Of a stretch of 32,000 nt of DNA, positions 3,274 to 27,706 are shown piece after piece (position 1 is the first letter of the stretch; every line of letters starts with the position of its first letter). The DNA is taken from positions 60,001 through 92,000 of the forward strand of contig NZ_LT934425.1 in NCBI RefSeq assembly GCF_900232105.1. The letters run 5' to 3'. This stretch comes from Candidatus Kuenenia stuttgartensis. GTDB lineage: Bacteria > Planctomycetota > Brocadiia > Brocadiales > Brocadiaceae. The position numbers and the translations under genes were made by a program. The notes under the pieces are model-generated. The model searched no databases, had not been told where the DNA came from, and saw nothing but the letters and a program-made list of their open reading frames with translations.

Positions 3274-4647
3274 ATGGAAGATTCTCTTTCAACAATAGAC
3301 GACATTGACTCTTTAAAAACCTTCGTCAGAAAAAAATATTACTATCTTGGGCAAAACAAGCAACAAGAGATATCCCGCCTTATCTTTGAGATTGCAAAAC
3401 GTGAAAAGGTTGGATTTTCACTTGTTTTTGAACAGATTCCCCCACCGCCAAGCCGTTTCTCTTTCATTAAAAGTTATTTGCTGGAACGGCGTTATCCTTT
3501 GCTTCACCAAAATGGGGTCAAAATAAGCCAGACTTTTTGCGACGTCGATATAAATCCCTCCTTAAGGGTTAATCTCACTACGAAACAAATCATCACGCCG
3601 AAACAGTTTTTTGTAGAAGAATCCGTTTTGTCTACCGAAACCGTTCAGCGAATACGCGACAAATTCCCCAACAGTACTTTTACCATGATAGCGTCCTACC
3701 GTGAATACGTGAAGAAGAAAGCATTTACTATTGCCGATTACAACAGAAGGCTGGAAAATTTCTTTATTATACGCGAAAAATTTGACTTTTATAAACACTG
3801 TCCATGTTCAAACAACTCCGCATCGTGCGGATATTTTGTAATGAATTTAGGGAGCGGATGCCCATATGAATGCACCTATTGCTTTCTTCAAAACTATATT
3901 AACTCGCCTGGGATTGTGCTACCGGCAAATATAGAGGATTTTTTCACCGTCTTCAGGAATTTAAAAAAAGACATGCGCCTCGGATCAGGAGAATTAACCG
4001 ATTCCCTTGCATTCGACCACATTACGGAGTATTCGCCTAAAATCGTGAATTTCTTCCGGCAATATCCCAAAAGCACTTTCGAGTTCAAAACAAAAAGCAA
4101 CAATGTGCGCTTGCTCACTTCAGCACCCGGAGCAAAGAATATTATCATTTCATGGTCATTGAATCCGCAAAAGTTGATCGACACCGCAGAGTATTTTACC
4201 GCTTCCCTGGAGGAAAGGTTAGAAGCAGCGCAAGCATGCACAGCGGCGGGATATCGTGTTGCTTTCCACTTTGATCCGATTATCTGCTATAGTGGATGGG
4301 AGACAGATTATGAAGTATTAATCAATACCGTCTTTACCAAAATTGAATCAAACACTATCGCGTGGCTGAGTTTAGGAACATTGCGCATATCGCCTCAATT
4401 AAAAAAAATCATTGAAAACCGGTTTCCCGAAAATGCCCTGCTTGACGAAGAATTATTAACCGGTTTCGACGGAAAATTGAGGTATCCGGCAGAGATAAGA
4501 TCATTTATATACACCACTATGAACTCATGGATACGGAAAAACAACAAAAGTGTTCCCGTTTATTTATGCATGGAGGAAAGAGAAATGCATAGAGACACAC
4601 ATCTCTCCCTTAAACATGAAACAAAACAGACAACGGTAATTTTTTAA
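3274..4647 (+). CDS. Radical SAM protein, spore-photoproduct-lyase-like (SplB/COG1533-type) with a long N-terminal extension
   Basis: 457 aa. CPYECTYC (CxxxCxxC) cluster motif preceded by FVMNLGSGC and followed by FLQNY. The downstream layout (GELTDSLAFD, SWSLNP, FHFDPII) resembles DNA-repair photolyase-type radical SAM enzymes. About 170 N-terminal residues have no recognisable family. Confidence 0.6.
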   Translation: MEDSLSTIDDIDSLKTFVRKKYYYLGQNKQQEISRLIFEIAKREKVGFSLVFEQIPPPPSRFSFIKSYLLERRYPLLHQNGVKISQTFCDVDINPSLRVNLTTKQIITPKQFFVEESVLSTETVQRIRDKFPNSTFTMIASYREYVKKKAFTIADYNRRLENFFIIREKFDFYKHCPCSNNSASCGYFVMNLGSGCPYECTYCFLQNYINSPGIVLPANIEDFFTVFRNLKKDMRLGSGELTDSLAFDHITEYSPKIVNFFRQYPKSTFEFKTKSNNVRLLTSAPGAKNIIISWSLNPQKLIDTAEYFTASLEERLEAAQACTAAGYRVAFHFDPIICYSGWETDYEVLINTVFTKIESNTIAWLSLGTLRISPQLKKIIENRFPENALLDEELLTGFDGKLRYPAEIRSFIYTTMNSWIRKNNKSVPVYLCMEEREMHRDTHLSLKHETKQTTVIF

Positions 4648-6952: not shown

Positions 6953-8668
6953 CCTAAATCCTGCAAACGATTTTCGCAATGCGAAAATCAGTATTTTCCA
7001 CTACCAAGATTGGCAAAAAGCGATAACAGATATCCGTTTTTTAGCAATTGTGGTAGCGCTATTGTACTACTTTAAACAAAAAGACATGGGAAATTGTCGG
7101 AAACGTGCTCTCTGATGCAATGAAAATCAAGATAGGGATGTACTGTCTCCATCTGCGGTATACTTACCACTCTCAAAAGACTAAAAAAACGAAATACAAC
7201 GTCGGTTTTCTACTGAAAAACTACATCCAGTGACATGCGTTCCCACTTTTCCCATTCCTCCTGATGGAGAAATTTCTCCGGCAATTTTAATGTCATCTGC
7301 CGGCTTCTCTCCACCAGTTTCCCTGCCACACGGATTAACCACAGTCTCATCGTCTTTACTTCCCACTGTTGTATCACTCCACCACTGAGCAATCCCATCC
7401 ACTTCAAAAGATTATACGCTAACACCGCACACTGAAATAGCGCAGCATTGGCCAAAAATTCACCCGTACGTATGTGCCCCGCATTCATCTGTCCTTTACT
7501 CTCTTCTATCAAAGTCTCGCAGGTAGCCCTCTTTCCATAACAACGATGCGCTTCCATCGGACTTAACCGCTCCGTTGTAACGTAACAAAAATACTCATAC
7601 ACGGACACTTCTACTAATTTCTTTTCTCTTTTGACCAATTGCCGCACTGCCACAAAACGTCTCGCACGATCCCACCCTGCACATCGATACCAAAATTCAG
7701 CCTGTTCCCATCCTGGCTCCCCTTTCACCTCATTCCATTTCTGCCCTTCAAGCAATCCTTCCAGATTCTTCAGCTTTACCTTAATCAGATATCCCGCCAA
7801 TATTGACTCAAGGTATTCAAGTAATTCTCCGGTAAAAAAACCGCTGTCTCCCCGAAATACCACCCTTACCCCCTTATTCATGTACGCCATACATTCCTTC
7901 ATGAACTCTACTACTCCGTTACTCGTGTAGGCGCTTCCACAGCGGAACCAACTATGTAATACCTCCTTTGTTTCTGCAATAAATGCCATTAAGGGATGAT
8001 ACGCCTTCTGCCCCTTCTTGTGCGGATTATATCCTACCTCTGCACCCTCCTGTTTCCCATATACACCATCTACGGTAGAATCAACATCTATCCATACTTC
8101 GCAAAGAGCACTCCTGAGTTTATGGCCTGATCTCACCGCACGCTTCCATATCTTTCCCCTAAACCGGTGGATCACCCCCGTCAGTTCCACTATATCTCCC
8201 TGACTCGCCAGCTTCATAATACGTCCTATCGTAGTATCTACAGGTACCTCTTTCCACCCGGACATCTTCTTCAATACCTCATCTGTACACACCTTCATCA
8301 CCTCTACCATCGATGTCGCCCCTGCTATCAACCCTATCACTACCATTTGTACCGCATCGACAAACTGATACCGGGCATTTGCTCCACGATCCTTATGGAC
8401 CGCTTCATGGACTCTCTCCCGGAACATCAGCTTACCCATAAAATTCAATACCGGTAAAAGCCCTGCATGTACCGTTAAGCCTTTCCCGCTCATCTCTGCC
8501 TTGATTTTCGGTTGTCTTTTGCTGTATTTTTTTGCTATATTCTTCATCGAAATGGTGAATCTCCTTTCAGGTGTTTTTTGTTATCAATATACCGCCGAAT
8601 ACCTTGGAAATCCTACCATTTCAATCCTATTCCTGCAACAAGGCTTTGCCTTGTTTGCAGGATTTAGG
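6953..8668 (-). mobile_element. Intact IS1380-family insertion sequence (1716 bp)
   Basis: 16-bp perfect terminal inverted repeats: CCTAAATCCTGCAAAC at 6953-6968 and its reverse complement at 8653-8668. Flanking direct repeat TTGTA (6948-6952 and 8669-8673). Single 445-aa transposase ORF. Confidence 0.85.
7210..8547 (-). CDS. IS1380-family DDE transposase
   Basis: 445 aa. The N-terminal ...GLTVHAGLLPVLNFMGKL.., central WIDVDSTV..YGKQEGAEVGYNPHKKG..YHPL, and FRGDSGFF layout are typical of IS1380/DDE_Tnp_1-type transposases. The ORF is full length. Confidence 0.8.
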   Translation of the reverse strand: MKNIAKKYSKRQPKIKAEMSGKGLTVHAGLLPVLNFMGKLMFRERVHEAVHKDRGANARYQFVDAVQMVVIGLIAGATSMVEVMKVCTDEVLKKMSGWKEVPVDTTIGRIMKLASQGDIVELTGVIHRFRGKIWKRAVRSGHKLRSALCEVWIDVDSTVDGVYGKQEGAEVGYNPHKKGQKAYHPLMAFIAETKEVLHSWFRCGSAYTSNGVVEFMKECMAYMNKGVRVVFRGDSGFFTGELLEYLESILAGYLIKVKLKNLEGLLEGQKWNEVKGEPGWEQAEFWYRCAGWDRARRFVAVRQLVKREKKLVEVSVYEYFCYVTTERLSPMEAHRCYGKRATCETLIEESKGQMNAGHIRTGEFLANAALFQCAVLAYNLLKWMGLLSGGVIQQWEVKTMRLWLIRVAGKLVERSRQMTLKLPEKFLHQEEWEKWERMSLDVVFQ

Positions 8669-10631: not shown

Positions 10632-12125
10632 ATGTTTCTATTTCAACGGTTATTGCATTTTTATATGAGAAGTTGCATAATTTTTATTGCCTTATTCACC
10701 TGTTTAACGTTGCCAGTCAAAGTAATCAAGGCTGAACCAACGCATCTCAATGAACAAATCAGGAATATTTTACAGAAATATTTATTAAAAAATGCTCACT
10801 GTGGAATCAGCGTTGTATCTCTAAAAACGAATACACCTGTCGTTAATTACCAAAGCAACGATTTATTCATGGTTGCATCTAATATGAAACTTGCAACAAC
10901 CGCAACCGCATTGGAATATTTAGGGACAGATTTTAAATACAATACCTCCGTTGAAGCAGATGGGAATATAAAGAGCGATGGAACACTTGAAGGCAACATT
11001 ATCATCAGGGGAAGCGGTGATCCAAATCTATCGGGAAGATTTTACAATAACAATATTTTAACTATTCCGAATGCATGGTTACAAGCAACAAAAAATCTTG
11101 GCATACAAAAAATTACAGGGGATATTGTAGCAGATGACTCAATCTTTGACCGCAATTATATCAACGATGCCTGGCCAAAAAACCAATTGCATGAGTGGTA
11201 TTGTGCGCCCACCAGCGGTTTATCATTTAATGATAATTGCATTGATATTATTTTCGTTCCCCGGAATAACGTAAATAAAAAAGTCTCGCTGCTAATTGAA
11301 CCGAACACTTCGTTTGTCACTATCCATAACGAGTGTATTTATACTTCTGAAGAGAAGCAACATGCGTATTCCATTTATCGAAAACCCGGAACAAACGATA
11401 TTTATGTTAAGGGGAAATTTTGGACGAACGCCTCTCAGAAACGGGAGTGGGTAAGTGTGCACAGTCCTTCACTCTATCTTGCAACACTTTTTAAAGAAAT
11501 GCTTAAAAATGGCGGTATATCTGTCTTTGGAATTGCCCGATTAATTAATGAAAACGACCGGATATCATATTCGAATAAACCTATTAAAATTGCCCAAACC
11601 ATTTCCACAATGGAACAATCTATTCACATCACAAACAAACGAAGCCAAAATTTCTATGCCGAACAAATAATAAAAACATTGGGAGCACATATAAAAGGCT
11701 GTGGCAATACAGAAAACGGTTTACAAGTTATTAGCGCTTTCATGAAAAAGTTAGGCTATGACAGTGAAGAGTATAAAATACGGGACGGGTCTGGTTTGTC
11801 AAAAGAAAACAAACTCTCGCCTAATATGATAACCACTCTTTTATCATATATGAATACACACAAACACGGCAAAGTGTTTTGCGACTCACTTCCAATTTCA
11901 GGCATAGATGGCGGACTTCACCGCCGTATGGCATCTCTACAATATAAGGGTAAAATTCACGCAAAAACCGGATACATTGCCGGAGCTTCGGCGCTTTCCG
12001 GTTATATTGATACCTCTAAAGGCGATAGACTTGCATTTTCTATTCTTATTAATAATTTTAAAAGCTTACGCGATGCCAAAAAAGCACAAGACGAGATTTG
12101 CCAATTTTTAGCAGATAATTTATAA
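10632..12125 (+). CDS. dacB: D-alanyl-D-alanine carboxypeptidase/endopeptidase (PBP4, peptidase S13)
   Basis: 497 aa with a signal-like N-terminus. Contains the SxxK motif (ASNMKL), DGSGLSKENKLSP, and the KTG motif (HAKTGYIAGASALSGY), in the order typical of PBP4/DacB. Confidence 0.8.
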   Translation: MFLFQRLLHFYMRSCIIFIALFTCLTLPVKVIKAEPTHLNEQIRNILQKYLLKNAHCGISVVSLKTNTPVVNYQSNDLFMVASNMKLATTATALEYLGTDFKYNTSVEADGNIKSDGTLEGNIIIRGSGDPNLSGRFYNNNILTIPNAWLQATKNLGIQKITGDIVADDSIFDRNYINDAWPKNQLHEWYCAPTSGLSFNDNCIDIIFVPRNNVNKKVSLLIEPNTSFVTIHNECIYTSEEKQHAYSIYRKPGTNDIYVKGKFWTNASQKREWVSVHSPSLYLATLFKEMLKNGGISVFGIARLINENDRISYSNKPIKIAQTISTMEQSIHITNKRSQNFYAEQIIKTLGAHIKGCGNTENGLQVISAFMKKLGYDSEEYKIRDGSGLSKENKLSPNMITTLLSYMNTHKHGKVFCDSLPISGIDGGLHRRMASLQYKGKIHAKTGYIAGASALSGYIDTSKGDRLAFSILINNFKSLRDAKKAQDEICQFLADNL

Positions 12126-12134
12126 ACCATACAC

Positions 12135-12761
12135 ATGAGCGACCACTTAAAAAAAATATATTCACTTTATGCGTACGTTTACGACACGCTCTTCGGAAAA
12201 ATATTCGAACATGGCAGATGCACTGCTCTTAAGATGATGGATATTGAACCACATGATACCATTCTTGAAGTAGGTATTGGTACAGGGTTGTCATTGCCGC
12301 TTTATCCGAAGGGAATCAGTATAATAGGAATAGATTTGAGTGAAGAAATGTTACTGCGGGCAAAGACGAAGAAAATGAAATACACCTTGAATAACGTGCA
12401 CTTATCTACTATGGATGCATCACTACTGGCCTTCAGGAATAATACTTTTGATAAAGTCATCGCATCACATGTTATTACCGTAGTACCGGAACCCATACAC
12501 ACTTTGAATGAAATAAAAAGGGTTTGCAAAAAGGAAGGGGATATTTTTATCTTAAATTACGCCGGTATTGATAATCAGTTCATCTCCCGATTTGAAAAAA
12601 TTATCTCACCCATAAGGGATAAACTCGGTTTAGGAAAACATTTCGATCTTGACTTGTTATTAAAGGAGGCCAGCCTTCCTGTTATGAGTAAACAACAGGT
12701 AAATATTTTTAACGCATGTCAGATAATAAAATGTCGCAATAATACCTCCTCTGAAGCTTGA
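12135..12761 (+). CDS. Class I SAM-dependent methyltransferase
   Basis: 208 aa. Motif I ILEVGIGTGLSL, followed by GIDLSEEML and the acidic loop MDASLLAF..NTFDKV. Substrate not inferable. Confidence 0.7.
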   Translation: MSDHLKKIYSLYAYVYDTLFGKIFEHGRCTALKMMDIEPHDTILEVGIGTGLSLPLYPKGISIIGIDLSEEMLLRAKTKKMKYTLNNVHLSTMDASLLAFRNNTFDKVIASHVITVVPEPIHTLNEIKRVCKKEGDIFILNYAGIDNQFISRFEKIISPIRDKLGLGKHFDLDLLLKEASLPVMSKQQVNIFNACQIIKCRNNTSSEA

Positions 12762-14202: not shown

Positions 14203-14931
14203 TTATTGCAAAGGATTATTAATGCGTCTCGTCTTAAAAACATGCCTAGTTTTCCCTATTCTGTACTCGCCATCTACCGACACGATTATTTCTTTTACCA
14301 TACTGTTTACCGATACATTTTCGGATTCACCTTCGGTCAGAATAACATCATACGTCAATGACCAATCTTTTATATCCTTATCGGGATCAACAAATATTGA
14401 TCCGAAATGATTGGTAAGTGAACTAACCTTATCAGTAACAAAGATTATTCTGTAGTTGTTAAGATTAAACATATGTTCCTGAAATACTTTTGGAGACTGA
14501 TGGATTGGTTGACATTCAGGAATTAATTCTGAGATTTTTCCCAGAGGTACCGGACCATCCGTAAAGTTCACATAGTATTCACTCACACGGTATGTTTCCC
14601 CGCCATTTGATCTGTCAACACCATAATAAATTCTTAACTCTATATTAGTATTATTTCTTTTTAAATAGTACAGATCGTGTAGCGGAACATCATACAAAAA
14701 AGTTTTTTTCAAACCGTCCTCTTCCTCCGGAGTAACTATTCTGTATCTCCTGAAAGGTTCTTCTTCACAATATAAGTAATTTGGCGTACCAAACTTCTCC
14801 CGAACTGCATTTTTTGTCAACCATAAGATGCCATCTTCCAAACTCTCTGAAGCATGCAAGCTGCAGACAAAACCAAATATAATACTGCACAAACTAAAAA
14901 CCAAGGCCATCGAACGTATTTTCTTTACCAT
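14203..14931 (-). CDS. Hypothetical exported protein
   Basis: 242-aa ORF with a signal-like N-terminus (MVKKIRSMALVFSLCSIIFGFVCSLHA). No family recognised. Confidence 0.5.
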   Translation of the reverse strand: MVKKIRSMALVFSLCSIIFGFVCSLHASESLEDGILWLTKNAVREKFGTPNYLYCEEEPFRRYRIVTPEEEDGLKKTFLYDVPLHDLYYLKRNNTNIELRIYYGVDRSNGGETYRVSEYYVNFTDGPVPLGKISELIPECQPIHQSPKVFQEHMFNLNNYRIIFVTDKVSSLTNHFGSIFVDPDKDIKDWSLTYDVILTEGESENVSVNSMVKEIIVSVDGEYRIGKTRHVFKTRRINNPLQ

Positions 14932-15238
14932 AATTACGAATTCCTTCCTTAAAATAGAAATATCTTCACTATTTAATACAAAAAAAGCTGTTTTGAGTGG
15001 TCAGACTGCCCTAAAATCAAAGTAAGCCGAAGTATATAAATTATCAATAAATTTGTCAATTAATAATTTAGAAATTAAAATCTCCAATTATTTCAATAGC
15101 AAAAGCGCCACTCATTTAAAATCATTGACAACCAATATTGCAATTGATAGAATTCTGTTTAAAAATTATAAATCTTGAACATACTTGAGTTTATGTCTGA
15201 TATAGTAATATTGTTTAAATTTCTTTCTGGAGTTATCA

Positions 15239-16981
15239 TTGAAAGTTTTTGTTGCTAAAACCGCAGGTTTTTGTATGGGAGTCCGAAGGGCAATGGATAT
15301 CCTGCTCGATGCGGCGAATGAAAAAAATATTGGCGCTAAAGTTTATACGGACGGTCCGTTAATCCATAATCCGCAAGTGCTTGAATATCTTGAAAAAAGA
15401 GACCTTCACATTGTTAATGATGTTACAGACCTCTCGAATAGCACCGTTGTCATCAGAGCGCATGGAGTGACTCCATCCCGAAGAGCGGAAATCGAAAGTA
15501 AAGGCGCAAAAGTATGCGACGCTACCTGTCCGCATGTAATGAGGGTGCAATCTATCATCAAAAAATATGCCGCACAGGGATATTCGACGATAATTGTCGG
15601 CGATAATGGACATGCCGAGGTGGTAGGATTGCTCGGTTATGCCGAGGGAAGAGGGCATGTAGTTGAAAACATGGAAAATATAGAACTACTTCCCCCTATG
15701 GATAAGGTATGCATTGTCGCCCAAACAACGCAAGACAGGCATTTATTTAAGAGGGCTATCGATGAAATAAAAAGACGTTATCCGAATTCAGAATCTTTTG
15801 AAACTATTTGCAGTTCCACCTACAAAAGACAGGATGAAGTAGTGAATCTCTGTAAATCTGTAGATGCAATGATTGTTGTTGGGGGCAGGGGAAGCGCAAA
15901 TACAACACGGCTAGTTACAATATGCGAATCACAGGGAACTCCGACATTTCACGTTGAAACAGACTCAGAAATAGACCTCAATAAATTAAAAGTTTTTAAT
16001 ACCATTGGCGTTACTGCAGGTGCATCAACACCAAATTGGATGATCAAAAGGGTTGTTGACAAAGTAAGAACATACAAGGTCAATAAATACCAAAAAATCT
16101 TATTTGCTACAAAAAGTATCTTTAATTTTTTAATAGGCAGTTGCACGTATGTAGCATTAGGTGCGGCAAGCATGAGTTATTCGTGTGCACTGCTGCTTGG
16201 TGTTCAGCCAAGATTGATTTTTTGCATAATCGCCGCTCTTTTCATTTTTTCAATGCAGGTACTTAATCATTTTGCCAACAAAGAATCCGTGGCACTCAAC
16301 GAGCCGGCGCGGGCAAAATTTTATGAAAAAAAGCAGGTCCTTTTTGTTATTTTAGGCATATTAGGAGCGGCCTTATCTTCAATTCTTGGGCTATACCACG
16401 GCAAATCCATCTTTTTTTGTGTTTTTCTCGCCAGTCTTTTTGGTATTTTTTACCGGCTGCAAATTATACCAAAGAGTTTTTCAGGTTTTATCCGGTACAG
16501 AAGCCTTGAGCAAATACCGGGTTCAAAAGAAATTTTCTACGGCATCGCCTGGGCAGCAAGCACCGCTTTAATTCCTTTTCTGGGTGTACGGAGAGACTTC
16601 ATACCGGCGCTTGCCATTACGGTTGCATTCGCATTCAGTCTCGCTTTTATACGCGCTGTCGTTCTTGATATTCGGGATATTCAGGGGGACCGCATTTTGG
16701 GCAAAGAAACCATTCCTATCGCAATTGGAAAAGAACGCACAAAAAAAATTCTTGTTAGCATTACCCTTTTCATGGCATCTCTTCTTATAGCAGGCACACT
16801 CCTTGGATGGATATCAACGCTGGGATATTTTTTGCTTCCGTGCATAGCTTATGCCTCCGGTTATCAATATCTTTTCCAAAAAAGAATAATAACGGAAGGA
16901 TTGCTGCTGGAAACGATAGCAGATTTTAATTTTATTTTTGCCGGTCTTATGGCGATTTTATGGCAATCTTTAACTTTTTAA
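15239..16981 (+). CDS. ispH: 4-hydroxy-3-methylbut-2-enyl diphosphate reductase (IspH/LytB) fused to a C-terminal polytopic UbiA-like membrane domain
   Basis: TTG start with GGAG 8 nt upstream. Residues 1-~285 are collinear with IspH and include the three cluster cysteines (GFCMGV, DATCPHV, ICSSTYKRQ) and GASTPNW. Residues ~295-580 are hydrophobic multi-span. They carry a DIRDIQGDRILGKETIPIAIG motif (UbiA second Asp-rich motif) and a degenerate first motif, NHFANKESVALNEP. Confidence 0.8.
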   Translation: MKVFVAKTAGFCMGVRRAMDILLDAANEKNIGAKVYTDGPLIHNPQVLEYLEKRDLHIVNDVTDLSNSTVVIRAHGVTPSRRAEIESKGAKVCDATCPHVMRVQSIIKKYAAQGYSTIIVGDNGHAEVVGLLGYAEGRGHVVENMENIELLPPMDKVCIVAQTTQDRHLFKRAIDEIKRRYPNSESFETICSSTYKRQDEVVNLCKSVDAMIVVGGRGSANTTRLVTICESQGTPTFHVETDSEIDLNKLKVFNTIGVTAGASTPNWMIKRVVDKVRTYKVNKYQKILFATKSIFNFLIGSCTYVALGAASMSYSCALLLGVQPRLIFCIIAALFIFSMQVLNHFANKESVALNEPARAKFYEKKQVLFVILGILGAALSSILGLYHGKSIFFCVFLASLFGIFYRLQIIPKSFSGFIRYRSLEQIPGSKEIFYGIAWAASTALIPFLGVRRDFIPALAITVAFAFSLAFIRAVVLDIRDIQGDRILGKETIPIAIGKERTKKILVSITLFMASLLIAGTLLGWISTLGYFLLPCIAYASGYQYLFQKRIITEGLLLETIADFNFIFAGLMAILWQSLTF

Positions 16982-17001: not shown

Positions 17002-17700
17002 ATGGAAACATTAAACAAATTTTTCAATCTATTAAAAACAGACATCCGAAAAAGGATGTTAACGGGCTTGTTATTAATCATCCCCATTTACGTAACCTTT
17101 TTTGTTGTAAAATTTCTCTTTAGTTTTATTGGGGGGACTCTTTCTCCACTTATAAAAAAAATATTTCTTTTATTTGATGCTGAGCTGCCAAAAACATCCG
17201 CCGATGAATTTATAATTACGTTCATCGGGCTTATCTTCACATTCGCCTCATTGTATTTTATAGGTGTCTTCGCCGCGAATATTATCGGCAAATCAATAAT
17301 TCATTATTTTGAAAACCTTTTAACAAAAACACCTGTTATTAACAATATTTATTCCACCGTGAAACAGATCGTACACGCAGTAAGCCTCCCCGGCAAACAA
17401 GCTTTCAAACGTGTTATTATACTGGATTTTCCAAAAGAAGGCACAAAAGCAATTGGTTTTGTAACAGGCAGCGTAAAAGAGAACGGCAAAGAAATATTTA
17501 TTAGTGTTTTTGTACCAACCACTCCAAACCCCACATCTGGTTTTTTGATATATACGACAGAAGATGCGGTGATAGACACAAACCTTACCGTTGAAGAGGC
17601 ATTTAAAGCACTGCTATCTGGCGGCGTATTAACTCCTAAACAATTTGCAACAATTTTAAAAACACCGCCCGACACGAAGTCTTCTGAAAAAAATACCTGA
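17002..17700 (+). CDS. DUF502-family membrane protein
   Basis: 232 aa. Two N-terminal TM segments followed by the VFVPTTPNPTSGFLIY signature typical of DUF502/COG2928 proteins. Confidence 0.7.
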   Translation: METLNKFFNLLKTDIRKRMLTGLLLIIPIYVTFFVVKFLFSFIGGTLSPLIKKIFLLFDAELPKTSADEFIITFIGLIFTFASLYFIGVFAANIIGKSIIHYFENLLTKTPVINNIYSTVKQIVHAVSLPGKQAFKRVIILDFPKEGTKAIGFVTGSVKENGKEIFISVFVPTTPNPTSGFLIYTTEDAVIDTNLTVEEAFKALLSGGVLTPKQFATILKTPPDTKSSEKNT

Positions 17701-17742: not shown

Positions 17743-18179
17743 TTAGCCAACGCTTTTGATAAAATCCAGGTCGTTCAATGCTCCGTGTTTATAAGTGTAT
17801 TGCTCCTTGATTATCTGAATTTCAGACAGCACTACATTGAAAGTCTCAATCAGCCCAGGATCAAAATGCGTCCCGGCGCATTCCCCTATTTCACGCACCG
17901 CCTCTTCTATAGACCATGCCTTTTTGAAGGACGATCTATTGTCAGGGCGTCGAAAACATCGGCTATGGTGATAATCCTGCCAGACAGCGGGATTTCCTCG
18001 CCCCTGAGCTTCTTGGGGTAACCACTCCCGTCCCATTTTTTGTGGTGAGTTAGCGCGAGTATGCATGCTGTCTGGCGCAGAATTCCGGGATGGTTCCCGA
18101 TAATTTCTGCACACATTGCCGGGTGCATACGCATAACCACCCATTCGGTTTCATCGGGCTTACCAAGCTTGAGGAGTAT
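17743..18179 (-). pseudogene. C-terminal remnant of an HD-GYP c-di-GMP phosphodiesterase, 5'-truncated by an IS630-family element and frameshifted
   Basis: Minus strand reads ILLKLGKPDETEWVVMRMHPAMCAEII...ALTHHKKWDGSGYPKKLRGEEIPLSGRIITIADVFDALT. After a 1-nt frame change near 17930-17940 it continues (D)RSSFKKAWSIEEAVREIGECAGTHFDPGLIETF. The upstream HD half is absent. Confidence 0.75.
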
Positions 18180-19300
18180 ATTGTATTGAAAATTAGGTGT
18201 CAATAGCGAAGCAAGTTCTTCTTTATGCTGCGAATGGTTTTTTTGCAAGCAGTCCATTATAGCGTTTTTAAATTTTGCAAACTCTGAATAATACTTTGAA
18301 TATAAGCACTGTTTTTTGACAAATTTCCAAAGCCGCTCAATAAGATTGAGGTTCGGTGAATACGGGGGCAAAAAAACCAACTCAATATGCAACTGTGCTG
18401 CCAGATTCTTAACAACGGTACACTTCTGATAACGGGCATTGTCTAATATGAAGGTAATAGGCATCGCTAAATTTAAACAGGCAGTTTTCCATAGTAAATC
18501 ACAAACACTTTGAGCATCTATGTAAGTCTCATTGGTTATGGTAATCAGTTAATGGGTTATTGCATTCAACGCTCCAAGGACATTCAACCGTTGCCTTCCG
18601 GAAGGCGCTTTGATAAATACACTGGCAAAGCACCAAAGACACCCTAAAAAGGGGCTAACACAAAATGAGCCGCATCAATAAAGAATACGGTTCTTTTCCC
18701 TTCTTCGGCTTCTTTGAGAAAGGGTTCTAACGTTTTTTTTAAAGGCTTCTTGCTCGTCAACATTAACTTTGGAGGGAATTGTGCCTACTTTACGACGGTG
18801 TAAACCAATCTTCTTGAGAAATTTCGCCACTTGTTTTTCACTGCGCTTGAGCCCTGTTAGCTTCTCTATTACGCCAATTGCTTCTTTCATTGTCACGGGT
18901 GGGTGTTCGCGGAAATAATTCTCAATCGTTTGTTTATGCTCGCTGAGTTTACTTTCAGGACGATAAAAATTGATCTCTTTTAATTTCTCTATACCTCCAT
19001 CCTGATATTCTTTGATATACTGGGTAACAACATTAATCGAGATTCCGGTTAATTGTGCTATTTTGTTATACGGCTCTCCTTGACTCTTGAACCACAGCGC
19101 TTCCATCTTTCGTTGCACTCGTGTATGGGGATGATGATATCGTTCATAATTTAATGCTTTTATGTCTTCTTCAGTAAACGCTATTTTTATCATAATCTCC
19201 TCATGGTTCAGGCCAAAAATAACACCTAAAAAAACCATATAATAAAGAATTCCATATATTCGTCCTCTAATACTTATATAGAAATAAAATAGTAAATTTA
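18180..19300 (-). mobile_element. Degenerate IS630-family insertion sequence (transposase in 3 frames plus a stop)
   Basis: The N-terminal HTH part is at 18675-19193 (MIKIAFTEEDIKALNYERYHH...; GAGGAG Shine-Dalgarno). The DDE_3 C-terminus is at 18180-18464 (ILDNARYQK...FLPPYSPNLNLIERLWK). Lesions are a frame change at a T8/A8 run (18732-18739), a frame change at an A5/T5 run (18646-18650), and an in-frame TAA (18549-18551). Terminal repeats were not resolved, so the ends are approximate. Confidence 0.7.
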
Positions 19301-19302
19301 AT

Positions 19303-19760
19303 ATGGTGTCCTCTAAATTCATGTATGGCAAGGAACCACCGGAATGGTTGCTTACAAAGCCTATTCTTTCTCTTTTAGAAACAAAAAATAAGTATCTGGC
19401 ATATAGGAAAATGGTACAAAGTTATTCCAGGGAAGAAACAAAAATATTGGAAGATTTCCGGCATGGTCTTTTTTTGAGTTCCCGGAAGTTGATTGACCGT
19501 ATAAAGTCAAAATATTTGGCAGAGAACTTGATGTTGAAATACCTCAAAAACGGCAAGTATTAAGGGGCACTAACCCTGAAAATATTCACAAGAAAGCCGC
19601 AAAGATTTTAAAATGTGATACAAACAATTTTTTACAATCCGCAAGAGTAAGAGAAGCGAAGGGGGGGGCAAATCTCTATTGTTGACAAATATGTCATTTT
19701 AAAAGATTTGACCCCACAAATGCCACTCATTATAGCAACCTCCTCAATGCATATAGTTAG
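19303..19760 (+). pseudogene. Remnant of a Y1 (IS200/RayT-like, COG1943-type) transposase C-terminal region
   Basis: The plus strand reads ..YGKEPPEWLLTKPILSLLETKNKYLAYRKMVQSY....LIDRIKSKYL.. This resembles the conserved tail (Y.G....P.WL....iL..F......Y..FV ... F...i..ky) of these proteins. The catalytic N-terminus is absent and stops occur further 3'. The assignment is from memory of the family pattern only. Confidence 0.35.
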
Positions 19761-21369: not shown

Positions 21370-23473
21370 TTAATCCAACTTCGACAAGCAGAAATCGTAT
21401 CTCTTTTATTGCCAATGTGATACGACTTTAGTCCTTCATTTTTCGGCACTACATCTTTGAGTTTTCATGGGTGATTTTATATTTTTTCTGCCTAATGGTG
21501 TATGTTTAATTTGTAGTTTATTGTAAATCGTGTGCTGCTTTTCCGTGGGCGCTGTGCAGGTTCTGACGTCAATAACGCAGCCGTCCTTTGTGTTCATGGT
21601 CGTTGTTACCCTTATATGGGTGGCAAGGATATTACGAATCGTATTCCAATTATAATGAACCCCTGCGGTTCTTAGCTTTTTTAATATCCCGGCAAGTATG
21701 TGATAGGCCAATACAGTGACATGCACGTGGGCAATGGTTGGGGTATCTGTGTGGTGAAAGTTTGGCCGTAAACCAAGGTTGCCTTTCATTGTTTTAAAAC
21801 TTTCCTCAACAGTACTCAACGACCTATGGAGCTTTGATATCTCTTCCCCGCTAAGATCAAGTCGGTTTGTCCGTAATACATACGTGCCTATGGCTTCTTC
21901 CTTTGCTTGCGCCTGAGCATTTTTCTTAAATTTGATATCGGTCGCTTTGCCATCCGTCTGTTCCACTTTGATCGTATATAAATTGCCCACCTTGTAGCGT
22001 TCTTTTAACCGGCCTATCCTCTCTATGATCGTATCATATTTTTTCTGTCTTTTTGGCTTCTCTAATCCTTCTTTTATTGCCGAGAGCGCCTCTTCAAACC
22101 TTTGTTCTTTCAGGGAAAGGATGGACTTCTCTTTTGACTCTTTTGCCTCTTTTGCCTCGCTGTGGCATAAAAGGAATGCCTCTTCTTCAGTACGGACTAA
22201 TTTCATGCCCAACGTTGTTTTCCCGTCTGATAACATAATCTTCTCTTCGTCCGTTTCAGGCCAAAAAGTATCTTCAAAAGATTTCTTGCGCGAGACGACC
22301 ACATATTTATAGCCACTCTTCCTGATAAGCGCAATGTTCTCTTCCGTTGCTATCCCTGCGTCCATAACTATCGTTCTATCATTTGAAAACATACCGTCTT
22401 CTTTTTTTAATCCATCCAAAATATCTTTTAGGGTACCAGGCTCCGACACATTGCCCTCAAAAACCTTGCTCTGCTTGGGAAATCCCTCTTCATCAACGGT
22501 AAGGGATAGCGTAATTAACGGACAATCATTACGGCTCTCTTTTGATTTGTAGCGCCGGGCCACCTTACTCCCTCTTTTGCTACCCTCAAAATAGGTATTT
22601 GTTAAATCATATAAAATCACCGTCTCTTTAAGGGAAAATATCTCTCGCGCCCGCTTTGACAACTCTTGCTCTATGGCGGCATGATTCTCCCAAAGCAAGA
22701 CTGCCGCGCGATGCAGCGCTTTATCATACAGTTTAACCCCTGAGTCCAACAGCTCTCCCGCCCCGCTTGTTTCAGAAAGCCATCGCACGGTATCACGCTC
22801 GCTGCCGGGATGAACCATTCTCCCCACAATGAGCATCTTGGAATAGGCAATCTGGTCATCTGTAAAATCAAGCCCTTGCAATATCTTATCAAACCCGTAT
22901 TCATTCATTTGGCTTATGGCCACGTGTTCGGCGCCTACGGTCTTTGCATCATTTGTTATCAGGGAATTAATATTCACGTGCTCGTATTGAGCAGGTTCTT
23001 CCCCTGCTGATTCACCGCCGGTAATACGTTCTTGCGCCCTGTCCAACCGCTCCTGTCTTATCTGGCTGGCATAATGCCTTGCTTTCGCCTCTATTTCAGG
23101 ATCTTGAGGAAACAACGTTTTTTGATTTGCTAAAAATCCTTCAATGCAATTGGCAAGGGTCTTCCACTTCTCCTCGGGCAGACTAAGCTGCCCAAGGTTT
23201 AAGACTATTTGCTGTCTTGGCCCTGAAGGGGTGCGAATGGATTCGATGAGTTGGTGTTGTATGTAGCTCTTCCCGCCATTCACTTTTTTGATCTTTTCAC
23301 GGATAAACACACCGGTATTTTACCATGTAAGCAATGGCGCCGCAAGCATAAACAATAATATTCAGGCACTACATTAAACGCCGAAAGCAACATTCAACCA
23401 TACCAATAGGTTACGACTATTACATGCTCAATTTCTTGCCTTTTTCAGGATAAATTTGTCGAAGTTGGGTTAA
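21370..23473 (-). mobile_element. Intact IS1634-like (IS4 superfamily) insertion sequence, ~2.1 kb
   Basis: Terminal inverted repeats: TTAATCCAACTTCGACAA (21370-21387) versus the reverse complement of TTGTCGAAGTTGGGTTAA (23456-23473). The last 4 bp (TTAA) are ambiguous with the abutting IS1380 fragment. Single full-length transposase ORF. Confidence 0.75.
21436..23310 (-). CDS. IS1634-family transposase
   Basis: 624 aa. The N-terminus MFIREKIKKVNGGKSYIQHQLIESIRTPSGPRQQIVLNLGQL is typical of IS1634-type transposases. Also present are YDLTNTYFEG (first D region), VMDAGIATEENI (second D) and a C-terminal region with ...RPNFHHT.....HV.V..LAY. Confidence 0.8.
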   Translation of the reverse strand: MFIREKIKKVNGGKSYIQHQLIESIRTPSGPRQQIVLNLGQLSLPEEKWKTLANCIEGFLANQKTLFPQDPEIEAKARHYASQIRQERLDRAQERITGGESAGEEPAQYEHVNINSLITNDAKTVGAEHVAISQMNEYGFDKILQGLDFTDDQIAYSKMLIVGRMVHPGSERDTVRWLSETSGAGELLDSGVKLYDKALHRAAVLLWENHAAIEQELSKRAREIFSLKETVILYDLTNTYFEGSKRGSKVARRYKSKESRNDCPLITLSLTVDEEGFPKQSKVFEGNVSEPGTLKDILDGLKKEDGMFSNDRTIVMDAGIATEENIALIRKSGYKYVVVSRKKSFEDTFWPETDEEKIMLSDGKTTLGMKLVRTEEEAFLLCHSEAKEAKESKEKSILSLKEQRFEEALSAIKEGLEKPKRQKKYDTIIERIGRLKERYKVGNLYTIKVEQTDGKATDIKFKKNAQAQAKEEAIGTYVLRTNRLDLSGEEISKLHRSLSTVEESFKTMKGNLGLRPNFHHTDTPTIAHVHVTVLAYHILAGILKKLRTAGVHYNWNTIRNILATHIRVTTTMNTKDGCVIDVRTCTAPTEKQHTIYNKLQIKHTPLGRKNIKSPMKTQRCSAEK

Positions 23474-24268
23474 CGGTACATGCAGGGCTTTTACCGGTAT
23501 TGAATTTTATGGGTAAGCTGATGTTCCGGGAGAGAGTCCATGAAGCGGTCCATAAGGATCGTGGAGCAAATGCCCGGTATCAGTTTGTCGATGCGGTACA
23601 AATGGTAGTGATAGGGTTGATAGCAGGGGCGACATCGATGGTAGAGGTGATGAAGGTGTGTACAGATGAGGTATTGAAGAAGATGTCCGGGTGGAAAGAG
23701 GTACCTGTAGATACTACGATAGGACGTATTATGAAGCTGGCGAGTCAGGGAGATATAGTGGAACTGACGGGGGTGATCCACCGGTTTAGGGGAAAGATAT
23801 GGAAGCGTGCGGTGAGATCAGGCCATAAACTCAGGAGTGCTCTTTGCGAAGTATGGATAGATGTTGATTCTACCGTAGATGGTGTATATGGGAAACAGGA
23901 GGGTGCAGAGGTAGGATATAATCCGCACAAGAAGGGGCAGAAGGCGTATCATCCCTTAATGGCATTTATTGCAGAAACAAAGGAGGTATTACATAGTTGG
24001 TTCCGCTGTGGAAGCGCCTACACGAGTAACGGAGTAGTAGAGTTCATGAAGGAATGTATGGCGTACATGAATAAGGGGGTAAGGGTGGTATTTCGGGGAG
24101 ACAGCGGTTTTTTTACCGGAGAATTACTTGAATACCTTGAGTCAATATTGGCGGGATATCTGATTAAGGTAAAGCTGAAGAATCTGGAAGGATTGCTTGA
24201 AGGGCAGAAATGGAATGAGGTGAAAGGGGAGCCAGGATGGGAACAGGCTGAATTTTGGTATCGATGTG
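23470..24268 (+). mobile_element. Doubly truncated second copy of the IS1380-family element (799 bp, inverted relative to 7680-8478)
   Basis: Every segment I compared by eye is nucleotide-identical to the reverse complement of 7680-8478. The 260-aa sense ORF and the two antisense ORFs are also identical in the ORF track. It lacks the first ~25 codons and IR (abuts the IS1634-like end) and everything after codon ~291 (abuts the transposon end at 24269). Confidence 0.9.
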
Positions 24269-24603
24269 TGCTACGTCTTAGAATAAATGCTCCAAAAATG
24301 CCCAATTAGTCTCAGAATATTTGAGTCTAATACCCAGCAAATGATTTGAAAAATCTTACCCAGCTACCCCGCCTTTTTTTTATCCTGCGTAAGTATTTCA
24401 CTTGATTTTTTGTTCACGTTAAGAAAAATACATCGTTTACCCCGTTAGAAAGAAGTTCCGTCCGTAAGGCGGAGTAAAGCCTCATTAAATAGTTTGGAAG
24501 GGGTTAAAACCACTTCCAAACTTCCTAACGGCGGTTTACTTCCCAGTTCCCCGTTTTCACGAGGACAAGTTTTGTAAGATTTTTCCGGAACATAAAAAAC
24601 TCA

Positions 24604-25351: not shown

Positions 25352-26912
25352 ATGAAATCGAAAGACGAAAAATGGGCTTTATTCTGGTGCAATCTTCTGC
25401 ATCCTGTCATCTTCGGTGAGATTGAGAAGGAGCAGACCAACCTTTTTCTGAAAAAACTCTGCCTTCAGGAGGTCGTATTCCCCAACGGAAAGCGGAAAAG
25501 ACCCACTATCTCTACCCTCAGGAGAAAACTCAACCGCTACCGCAAAGATGGATTTCAATCTCTTGCAAGAAAGGCGAGGAGCGACCGTGGCGCATCCAGA
25601 AGGTTTTCTCCTGAAATTATCGACAAAGCCGTTGAACTCAAAAAAGAACAACCACGCCGCAGCGACGATTGCCTCAACCGCTTTCTTGAGAAATACTATG
25701 GGAAAACGATCCCCAAATCCACCCTCTACCGCCATCTCAGACTCGCAGGGGCGACCCGGCTCAAACTCGGCGTCTCACAGCAAAAGGTGCGTATACGCTC
25801 TTAGCCGTGAGCATACCCACGACCTCTGGATTGGCGACTTCCAGGAAGGCCCTTTCGTGCTCGTTGACGGCGAGGCGCTTCCCACAAACCTCTGTCTCTT
25901 TATCGACTGCTACAGCCGTTATGTGGTCGAAGGACGGTATTATCTCAAACAAACCCTCGATATCCTTATCGATTCTCTCATCAGGGCCTGGACTATCCAC
26001 GGCTCGCCCAAAGAACTCTACCTCGACAATGCCAAGGTCTACCACTCTGACGCCCTGCGCTCTGCCTGTTACAACCTCGGCATTAAACTCATCCACAGAC
26101 CACCACGCGACCCTGCTCCCGGCGGACTGGTCGAACGTTTCTTCGGCACCAGCCAGACACAGTTCGAGTCGGAAGTCCGCTCCGGCGACATTATCACCCT
26201 TGATGCCATTAACCAGGCCTTCTCCGCTTACCTTGCCGTTGTCTATCACGCAAGAATCCACTCCGAAACCAATCAATCTCCAAAACAACGCTACGACGAG
26301 GGGCTTACCGTCATCCGACACGTCGATATGGACGCCGCTCTTGCCTTCTTCATGAAACGCATCCCCAGAACCGTTGACAGAACCTTTGCCGATGTCCGCA
26401 TTGATAACCGCTTTTACCGTGTTGACCCCAAACTCAGAGGCGATAAAGTAGAAGTCCGTTACGACCCATACGGCGATCTCAAAAAGGTCTTGATCTATTC
26501 CGCAAACGGTGAATACCTCGGCTCGGGAAATCTCTACCTGCGCGACCAGGGCGCTGAAACTCCAGCCGCCTCACCTTCAAAACCAAAACATAATTACCTC
26601 GACCTTATCACTCAGAAACACAAATCCATTCTCCAGGCTCAGGCCAAAGGCATTGATTACCACCAAATCATCTCCGAACGACCCTGGCCATTCATGGCAT
26701 TCGTCCAGAAACTCGCACTCCTCATGGGACACAAAGGCTCTCTCTCCGCCTTCAGCTCTCATGAACTCGAATCGCTTAAAAAATGCTACAACCGTATCCC
26801 CGCTCTCAACGAATCATTGCTCACGGAGGCATTCCAAAATGCCTCCGTGAAAACCTTACCCTATATCATTCGTGAATTACAAATCGCTTACTCGAAAAAG
26901 GAGGTCTCTTAA
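25352..26912 (+). CDS. Mu/TnsB/TniA-type DDE (rve) transposase, interrupted by a +1 frame change (ORFs 25352-25804 and 25548-26912)
   Basis: The N-terminal HTH region is ..ISTLRRKLNRYRKDGFQSLARKARSDRGASRRF..LKKEQPRRS..STLYRHL. The catalytic core is HDLWIGDF (D), LYLDNAKVYHS (D), GGLVERFFGT (E). The Mu-transposase-C-like beta-barrel region is RTVDRTFADVRIDNRFYRV...VEVRYDPYGDL. The two halves lie in adjacent frames, with the junction near 25785-25804. Confidence 0.8.
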
Positions 26913-26914
26913 CC

Positions 26915-27706
26915 ATGTTTACTTCTCATTTTTCCATGACTACTCAGCCGTTCTCTGAAAGAATCAACACCAGCCTTATCATGAAAGACGAACGCTTTAC
27001 CCAGGGGCTTGCACGACTCCAATACCTCTTACACTCAGGCTCTATCGCCGTCCTCTACGGACAGACGGGAGTCGGAAAATCCACACTCCTCAAACTCTTC
27101 CTCTCACAAATCCCCCAAAACCTGTTTCTCCCCATCTACCTCCATTTTACCCACCTAAAATCATCCAGCCTTCTCTCCTTAATCGTCTCCCAGCTCGGTG
27201 AAATACCAAAACACACCAAAGACCGGCTCTTCCTCCAAATTATGGATAAATCCTTGCGCTCAAATCTCACTCCCATTATCGTTATCGACGAGGCTCATCT
27301 CCTGAAAACCGACGCCATCACAGACCTCAGACTCCTTGTCAGCTCTCCGCTTGATTCTTCCACTCATCTCAAAATCATCCTCTCGGGACAGGAACACCTC
27401 AAATATATCCTCAAAAGAGACATCCATGCCGACTTCGCACAACGCATCTCGGTACATTACCACATTCATCCCCTTACTAAAACTCAAACCGCTGCATACA
27501 TAGACTTCCATCTGAAATCTTCCGGCGCATCCGATAAAATCTTTGACTCAGACGTCAAAGACCTGATCCATGAGTTCTCCGCCGGCATCCCAAGGCAAAT
27601 CAACGCCATTTCCACCGCCTGCCTGATTAACGCTTCCATCAGACAATCACAGAAAATTACCCAGGATATCTTCCATCAGGCTCTTGCTGAAATTCAATCT
27701 TTTTAA
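26915..27706 (+). CDS. AAA+ ATPase, TniB/MuB/ExeA-like transposition helper
   Basis: 263 aa. Walker A YGQTGVGKSTLLK, Walker B IIVIDEAHLL, and a sensor region ILSGQ. Its position immediately after the DDE transposase matches Tn552 / Tn5053 / Mu. Confidence 0.75.
   Translation: MFTSHFSMTTQPFSERINTSLIMKDERFTQGLARLQYLLHSGSIAVLYGQTGVGKSTLLKLFLSQIPQNLFLPIYLHFTHLKSSSLLSLIVSQLGEIPKHTKDRLFLQIMDKSLRSNLTPIIVIDEAHLLKTDAITDLRLLVSSPLDSSTHLKIILSGQEHLKYILKRDIHADFAQRISVHYHIHPLTKTQTAAYIDFHLKSSGASDKIFDSDVKDLIHEFSAGIPRQINAISTACLINASIRQSQKITQDIFHQALAEIQSF

Follow-up and report, generated by a model that had tools for sequence, protein, structure and literature searches.

The essential enzyme IspH is a target for drugs, and in some bacteria it is fused to a membrane domain whose purpose has been in question since 2015. 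In that year, Rao et al. (Chem Sci, PMC4746011) described 47 IspH-UbiA "Rosetta stone" fusions, all of them in sulfate-reducing bacteria, classed the UbiA part as PT_UbiA_5, of unknown function, and reported two DXXXD repeats. In their proposal, the UbiA domain places IspH at the membrane, and IspH supplies a UbiA-like prenyltransferase. Here, we analyse a gene of this kind from the anammox (anaerobic ammonium-oxidizing) planctomycete Candidatus Kuenenia stuttgartensis. It lies in a window of 32,000 nt, that is, the whole stretch of DNA analysed (contig NZ_LT934425.1, positions 60,001 to 92,000), and coordinates below count from the first base of this window. By sequence comparison, its product is an ortholog in the known fusion family of Rao et al. 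(PMC4746011). The explanation towards which we lean, by a modest degree, is that a working IspH is tethered to the membrane by its fusion to a non-canonical UbiA-type module, which binds an allylic or prenyl diphosphate. The membrane domain is constrained and therefore probably functional, and a textbook UbiA mechanism is unlikely for it.

Is the fusion a peculiarity of one genome? A preliminary description of this DNA, made from its letters alone, had reported a complete IspH continued in frame into a UbiA-superfamily membrane domain and had considered this unusual. The architecture is confirmed, since the gene is a single open reading frame whose LYTB and UbiA matches both exceed their cut-offs; the UbiA relationship of the C-terminal half is upheld by Pfam profile and Foldseek fold searches, and no frameshift or missed stop codon is found at the junction in any relative. 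The word unusual was an overstatement, because the fusion is a published family widespread in anaerobes. The IspH and UbiA parts adjoin each other in a single reading frame at 25 of 25 Brocadiaceae loci, as they also do in Scalindua and other lineages, and everywhere in the anammox order the fusion measures ~580 aa. When 5.8 billion proteins were searched with a profile, 1334 relatives were retrieved at E<=1e-10, and nearly all of the best 120 are ~580 aa long, contain both Pfam domains and are named Brocadia, Scalindua, Wunengus or Brocadiales. The exact protein (P0090) is represented in the public protein collection by 31 member sequences on 4 contigs; its C-terminal half is 98% identical to that of Candidatus Kuenenia sp., in keeping with an origin of the window in this genus, 89% to that of K. 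hertensis and 71-78% to those of Brocadia, Wunengus, Loosdrechtia and other Brocadiaceae metagenome-assembled genomes.

The family was delimited with a profile of the membrane domain, run against 1.84 billion cluster representatives with no word index, and comprises 393 clusters of 50% identity at E<=1e-30. Among the best 150 of these clusters, 103 have representatives of at least 540 aa with joined domains, the UbiA-like part occupying approximately residues 266-577. The other 47 hits are shorter than 540 aa, and all 20 that were inspected start with the C-terminal tail of IspH (VTAGASTPNW..., MVVVGGKxSANT...). Because each opens with this tail, these short hits are fragments of fusions rather than free-standing genes, and no free-standing copy of the UbiA-like domain was found among the 20. 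Within the hits sampled, the fusion thus appears to be obligate, this UbiA-like subfamily occurring only together with IspH. Named members belong to the Brocadiales, including Candidatus Avalokitesvara, and to Nitrospinota, Candidatus Edwardsbacteria, Thermodesulfobacteriota, Desulfovibrionales and 'Deltaproteobacteria'. One cluster (that of P0168) bears both Thermodesulfobacteriota and Desulfovibrionales names, and a profile of anammox and related sequences recovers ~580-aa fusions with E values down to 1e-121.

The N-terminal half has every hallmark that we looked for in a 4-hydroxy-3-methylbut-2-enyl diphosphate (HMBPP) reductase. Pfam LYTB (PF02401) covers residues 3-276 (E 8.2e-92, 307.7 bits against a cut-off of 24.5) and TIGR00216 (ispH_lytB, NCBIfam) passes its cut-off of 187.85 with 285.7 bits. 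Residue conservation was counted, here and below, in 104 sequences consisting of the window protein and 103 full-length cluster representatives. In this set C97, C191, H43, H125, E127, S219, N221 and S263 are invariant, and position 12 is Cys in 90 sequences and a gap in the remaining 14; the three cluster cysteines reported in the preliminary description (C12, C97 and C191) are indeed all present. We take the E. coli equivalents of C12, C97, C191, H43, H125, E127, S219, N221 and S263 to be C12, C96, C197, H41, H124, E126, S225, N227 and S269, respectively. The AlphaFold2 (AF2) model of this half shows the trefoil IspH fold, with a target-normalised template modelling (TM) score of 0.85 and 37% identity to A. 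aeolicus IspH (3dnf), and of 0.83 (root-mean-square deviation 2.2 A) to E. coli IspH. Across Brocadiaceae it is 80-83% identical, the membrane half 71-78%. The genes flanking the fusion are housekeeping genes in all lineages (tRNA synthetases, purine synthesis, ribosomal proteins), which fits with the fusion being the primary ispH. K. stuttgartiensis uses the methylerythritol phosphate (MEP) pathway (PMC2649909); beyond this, a literature search on anammox bacteria and IspH or the MEP pathway yielded nothing further. We infer that the N-terminal half is a working HMBPP reductase, and probably the primary IspH of the cell.

The membrane half has a UbiA fold, and at the level of sequence it is remote from the UbiA-type enzymes that have been characterised. 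Pfam UbiA (PF01040) matches residues 323-545 with 47.8 bits (E 1.5e-12; gathering score 34.2), and an AF2 model of this domain alone, built with the alignment of the 104 sequences, reaches a predicted local distance difference test (pLDDT) score of 95.1 and a predicted TM score (pTM) of 0.92. Foldseek aligned the model in the PDB with the UbiA proteins of A. pernix (4od4, TM 0.66/0.73) and A. fulgidus (4tq3, TM 0.62/0.67), with digeranylgeranylglyceryl phosphate (DGGGP) synthase (7bpu and 6m31, TM 0.53-0.60) and with UBIAD1 (8djk, TM about 0.5). Sequence identity to solved UbiA-type structures is 14-19%. The more specific UbiA-type models all stay far below their cut-offs: PRK13591 (NCBIfam) gives 55 bits against 238, TIGR01476 (BchG) 39 against 212.3, TIGR02056 29 against 436 and NF009512 (DGGGPS) 37.5 against 278. 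A comparison of the membrane-domain profile with every PDB chain gave no hit at E<=0.01, and the sole match was chlorophyll synthase (9sau, E 0.36), which helped to set the register of the first motif and gave no clue to function.

How are the two halves arranged? The predicted inner loops of the membrane domain carry 17 Lys or Arg residues and the outer loops 3, so the loops bearing the Asp-rich motifs are expected to be cytoplasmic, on the side of IspH. The halves are joined by a helical linker, which is the most variable segment of the protein (entropy 1.59; the two domains have values of 0.60 and 0.73) and in which the pLDDT drops to 72 at residues 281-290. The full-length AF2 model has a pLDDT of 94.1 and a pTM of 0.90. 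Because such a pTM with two domains of equal size needs a confident relative orientation, the halves are predicted to be rigidly docked; that they are so, and not loosely tethered, is an appearance of the model that comes from the pTM alone.

The conservation of its polar residues speaks for a functional membrane half. The second Asp-rich motif, which the preliminary description had rated as good, is found where it was placed, from nt 16667 (residues 477-497), and is the most conserved segment of the membrane half within the anammox clade. D484 is kept in all 104 sequences, G488 in 102, E490 and T491 in 95 each, D477 in 81 and D480 in 75. In the PGSK segment at the start of transmembrane helix 5, S429 is kept in 98 sequences, and residue 430 is Lys in 93 and Arg in 11. 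Elsewhere in the domain, Y405 (102 of 104), R472 and W438 (97 each) are likewise retained. Conserved charged and polar residues persist in this way at overall identities of 25-50%. To judge from the aligned sequences, a polar pocket of the kind found at Mg2+/diphosphate sites appears to be retained, consisting of N343, R358, Y405, K430, R472, D477, D480 and D484.

The first Asp-rich motif is different. In the weak profile alignment with chlorophyll synthase (9sau, E 0.36), NDFYDRDIDAINEPYR of that enzyme stands opposite the family consensus NrladkeaalnePsr, and the pattern of the family at this place is N-x3-[D/E/N]-x6-N-[D/E]-P-x-R. In this weak register, the canonical aspartates at +1, +4 and +8 correspond to H344, N347 and V351 of the Kuenenia protein, which reads N343-H-F-A-N347-K-E-S-V351 where N-D-x-x-D-x-x-x-D would be canonical. 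The absence of the canonical aspartates, already seen in the preliminary description, therefore stands, and only its nucleotide positions were displaced by one base (the motif spans 16265-16312). The full canonical motif is missing from every family member sampled. Position +1 is Asp in 0 of 104 sequences, and +4 is Asp in 53, Glu in 16, Asn in 9 and Ser in 8; Asp occurs at +8 in 16 sequences, and at +4 and +8 together in 3. On this count, the statement that two DXXXD repeats are present (PMC4746011) holds for a small minority of the family sampled. In 23 sequences, the window protein among them, all three positions are non-acidic. Other residues of the region are kept to a larger extent, namely N343 in 92 sequences, P356 in 82 and R358 in 66.

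Within the anammox clade (111 sequences), this first loop is fixed as L-N-[HY]-F-A-N-K-E-A-[VA]-A-L-[NS]-E-P-[AS]-R-A-K, with N347 present in 107 of the 111. Its entropy is 0.45, compared with an average of 0.73 for the membrane domain, so that the loop is more conserved than its surroundings. Because the canonical motif is found in none of the 104 sequences and the anammox loop is conserved above the average, the variant is best read as a selected trait of the family. What had been described as a degenerate motif is on the evidence of these alignments a family trait under selection and not decay in the Kuenenia genome. N343, N347, E349 and E355 are candidates to replace the aspartates in a putative metal site.

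What might such a protein do? According to the explanation that we favour, the IspH half would be a catalytically intact HMBPP reductase and probably the source of the isopentenyl diphosphate (IPP) and dimethylallyl diphosphate (DMAPP) of the cell. The nine-helix UbiA-fold half would anchor it on the cytoplasmic face of the membrane, where the active-site loops of the UbiA type also lie, and, as our best guess, would still bind an allylic or prenyl diphosphate derived from the products of IspH. Two outcomes can be envisaged: either the bound prenyl group would be passed to a membrane acceptor via a non-canonical metal site, or prenyl-diphosphate binding would couple IspH to the isoprenoid demand of the membrane.

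Several points weigh against this explanation. The aspartates at +4 and +8 are required for activity in the UbiA enzymes that have been studied, the canonical NDxxDxxxD motif is missing from the entire set of 104, positions +1, +4 and +8 are all non-acidic in the window protein, and the first-motif region varies across the family and between lineages. UbiA-type enzymes normally use IPP and DMAPP only after soluble synthases have elongated them, and direct channelling from one half to the other is therefore not obvious. No isoprenoid, quinone or lipid gene lies consistently next to the fusion in the loci examined, and for this reason no acceptor can be proposed. The docking of the two halves is itself read from a single model score. 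Finally, Rao et al. (PMC4746011) could not express an active full-length fusion. The two readings offered by the preliminary description, tethering or channelling on the one hand and an inactive anchor on the other, had both been discussed in that paper, and sequence alone cannot decide between them.

It is possible, if on balance improbable, that the UbiA-like half is no ordinary prenyltransferase at all, being instead a sensor or gate that couples the last step of the MEP pathway to the isoprenoid status of the membrane, or an enzyme with an altered metal site that makes an undiscovered membrane isoprenoid. This idea comes from three features taken together: the domain is seen only with IspH, the canonical first motif is lost family-wide and the halves are apparently docked rigidly. 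In the case of such an enzyme, its product would be common to anammox bacteria, sulfate reducers, Nitrospinota and candidate phyla.

We are rather doubtful that the membrane half is an inactive anchor, which has lost catalysis and in which the UbiA fold pins IspH to a membrane, for example near the membrane-bound consumers of IPP and DMAPP or near an electron-supplying complex. The lack of a canonical first motif, the 23 sequences that are non-acidic at all three positions, the wide divergence of this region between lineages and the lack of conserved partner or acceptor genes nearby are what such an anchor would lead one to expect. However, the invariance of D484 and the retention of Y405, K430, R472, E490 and T491 in sequences only 25-35% identical are unexpected for a plain anchor, in which the second motif would hardly be the best-conserved segment of the membrane half. 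In addition, nine helices enclosing a UbiA cavity are needless for mere anchoring, and the strong constraint on the variant loop of the anammox clade, conserved beyond the average of the domain, argues against a decaying, purely structural part.

In animals, UBIAD1 and HMG-CoA reductase provide a precedent for regulation, in which a UbiA-family protein senses geranylgeranyl diphosphate and controls the rate-limiting enzyme of the mevalonate pathway. By analogy, the UbiA-like domain could bind a prenyl diphosphate or a membrane isoprenoid without turnover and tune IspH allosterically, as a covalent bacterial counterpart of the UBIAD1-HMGCR pair. The predicted rigid docking (pTM 0.90), the apparently obligate fusion, a diphosphate-type pocket that is kept while the catalytic first motif is relaxed, and the presence of UBIAD1 with HMGCR (8djk) among the structural matches are all compatible with such a regulatory sensor. 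Even so, we judge it unlikely: no experiment points to regulation, the match to UBIAD1 (TM about 0.5) is a weak one that reflects the common fold only, IspH is not known as a flux-controlling step, and D477, D480 and D484 are conserved as they are in active enzymes of the ChlG/DGGGPS type.

A merging of adjacent ispH and ubiA-like genes by a sequencing or assembly error can be dismissed for practical purposes, and a frameshift at the junction is excluded, given that all relatives are in frame, including the 25 of 25 independent Brocadiaceae assemblies, Scalindua and other lineages, that 103 of the best 150 cluster representatives, from many studies, reach at least 540 aa with both domains, and that the exact protein recurs in 31 member sequences on 4 contigs; nothing was found in favour of such an error. 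Two further ideas were considered and discarded. The formation of non-isoprenoid ether lipids in anammox bacteria and sulfate reducers was set aside, as the chemistry of UbiA-type enzymes depends on an allylic diphosphate and no evidence supports the idea. Electron donation from menaquinol to IspH via the UbiA cavity was rejected on grounds of redox potential (general reasoning).

The features of the locus are collected in Table 1. The N-terminus of the fusion protein, MKVFVAKTAGFCMGVRRA, agrees with the family consensus, which indicates that the TTG start is correct. The promoter-like candidate upstream matches the sigma-70-like consensus at 11 of 12 positions, and sites of this quality occur in the region at chance level.

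Table 1. Features of the ispH-ubiA fusion locus in the Candidatus Kuenenia stuttgartensis window (nt, window coordinates)
Feature	Position	Strand	Residues and remarks
Promoter-like candidate TTGACA-17-TAGAAT with upstream TG	15125..15153	+	~85 nt 5' of the start codon
GGAG ribosome-binding site	15230..15233	+	5 nt 5' of the TTG start; read off the sequence
ispH-ubiA fusion gene	15239..16981	+	TTG start, 580 aa, stop codon included, no internal stops
IspH/LytB domain, HMBPP reductase type with [4Fe-4S] cluster	15239..16075	+	residues 1-279; Pfam, TIGR00216, AF2 model
Cys12, Fe-S cluster ligand	15272..15274	+	alignment
Cys97, Fe-S cluster ligand	15527..15529	+	invariant, 104/104
Cys191, Fe-S cluster ligand	15809..15811	+	invariant, 104/104
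Helical linker, most variable segment	16076..16144	+	residues 280-302; AF2 helix 283-300
UbiA-fold domain, nine predicted transmembrane helices, N-terminus inside	16145..16978	+	residues 303-580; Pfam, AF2, Foldseek
Non-canonical first motif NHFANKESVALNEPAR	16265..16312	+	residues 343-358; profile alignment to chlorophyll synthase
Conserved PGSK at the start of transmembrane helix 5	16517..16528	+	residues 427-430
Second Asp-rich motif DIRDIQGDRILGKETIPIAIG	16667..16729	+	residues 477-497; D477-x2-D480-x3-D484 intact
DUF502 membrane protein gene	17002..17700	+	232 aa; Pfam E 6e-29; starts 20 nt past the stop codon of the fusion

The gene that follows the fusion, correctly recognised in the preliminary description as DUF502 at a distance of 20 nt, is its only constant neighbour in the Brocadiales. 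DUF502 lies 20-125 nt 3' of the fusion in every Brocadiales locus examined (L001-L026 and L030-L033), an adjacency that extends to Scalindua (L030, UbiA part 58% identical) and to an Avalokitesvara-like lineage (L032, 49%), and the remaining flanking genes differ among these loci. Because DUF502 stays adjacent while the other neighbours differ, a functional or transcriptional link can be proposed, for the Brocadiales only; in the loci examined from distant members outside this order, DUF502 is not adjacent to the fusion. The intergenic region between the two genes contains no terminator better than chance, DUF502 is probably co-transcribed with the fusion gene, and its product might be a partner of the fusion in the Brocadiales. 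The literature on DUF502 consists of passing mentions that give no function. The neighbourhoods of the distant members (L028, L029 and L034-L036) contain housekeeping genes that differ from lineage to lineage, and none was found there that relates to isoprenoids, quinones or lipids.

Other parts of the window deserve a brief mention. Directly after DUF502, the region 17743-19331 (-) is broken up by a mobile element: the open reading frame 17907-18464 is chimeric, with the C-terminus of a DDE_3 transposase joined to an HD_5/HD-GYP-type domain, the open reading frame 18675-19331 encodes an HTH_23 transposase N-terminus, and an HD-domain gene seems to have been interrupted here by an insertion sequence. 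Transposase genes are dense in the window, with a full-length DDE_Tnp_1_4 at 7210-8547 (-), a DDE_Tnp_1 at 21436-23310 (-), a truncated DDE_Tnp_1_4 at 23500-24309 (+) and, at 25548-27706 (+), an rve/Mu-transposase-C protein followed by an AAA_22 ATPase, a pair that looks like a two-gene transposition module. Upstream of the fusion and divergent from it, 14203-14931 (-) encodes a protein of 242 aa with a signal-peptide-like N-terminus and no Pfam match, which is kept in relatives at the Kuenenia level (83-97%, L001-L003) and was not found at the other Brocadiaceae loci. Within ~3 kb of the fusion there is also a pair of genes for a Peptidase_S13 (D-Ala-D-Ala carboxypeptidase) and a UbiE-like methyltransferase, at 10632-12761 (+). 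This pair, 44% and 42% identical, recurs near the fusion in the distant metagenomic locus L035 (9323-11391, -), whose fusion protein is ~35% identical to the window protein in the UbiA part; residual synteny or coincidence may account for it. Further away, 3274-4647 (+) encodes a 457-aa protein that matches spore photoproduct lyase, a radical SAM enzyme (Pfam SPL, E 2e-25). The host is a non-sporulating planctomycete, and the product is probably a DNA-repair or other radical-SAM enzyme.

With regard to lipid genes, Rattray et al. 2009 (PMC2649909) reported that the lipid-biosynthesis clusters of K. stuttgartiensis are strikingly syntenic with those of Desulfotalea psychrophila, a sulfate reducer. 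Anammox bacteria and sulfate reducers are paired in the same way in the IspH-UbiA family, which hints that the two groups shared or exchanged membrane-lipid genes.

Our literature search found no later paper treating the IspH-UbiA fusion after that of Rao et al. and no mention of the fusion in anammox bacteria. The architecture is not new; what appear to be new are the finding of a canonical first motif in 0 of 104 sequences, the lack of any free-standing copy among the hits seen, the predicted docking and the link with DUF502. Throughout the anammox order, the fusion appears to be the standard form of IspH, and it is also found in sulfate reducers, Nitrospinota and candidate phyla. For anammox biology, this would locate the terminal step of isoprenoid-precursor synthesis at a membrane, by prediction. 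In practical terms, the analysis provides residues to mutate (D484, N347, K430 and R472) and a candidate partner gene, DUF502.

How does the Kuenenia protein compare with the systems already known? The likeness to UBIAD1-HMGCR (8djk) is one of analogy only, in that each physically links a membrane protein of the UbiA fold with an enzyme of isoprenoid-precursor synthesis; the UBIAD1-HMGCR system is non-covalent, eukaryotic and belongs to the mevalonate pathway, and UBIAD1 itself is an active prenyltransferase of the canonical kind. The IspH-RPS1 fusions of Firmicutes and Fusobacteria (PMC4746011; NF000907) likewise have an N-terminal IspH in a protein of double length, but their C-terminal partner consists of soluble S1 RNA-binding repeats and not of a membrane domain; NF000907 aligns to residues 1-282 of the window protein with 325 bits, below its cut-off of 624. 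The nearest characterised branch of the UbiA superfamily is that of ChlG/BchG and archaeal DGGGP synthase, with which the fusion has in common the nine-helix UbiA fold (7bpu, 6m31), the second motif D-x2-D-x3-D-R-x2-G-x2-T and the 'N-E-P-x-R' after the first motif. Unlike these enzymes, it lacks the first-motif aspartates, scores below the family cut-offs and has IspH attached. The closest relatives are the sulfate-reducer fusions of Rao et al. (PMC4746011), which show the same order of an N-terminal IspH and a C-terminal UbiA-like domain, the same length of ~580 aa and homologous membrane halves, whereas the Kuenenia protein differs from them in its host, an anammox planctomycete, in the Asn that its clade carries at +4 and in the Brocadiales-specific DUF502 gene downstream.

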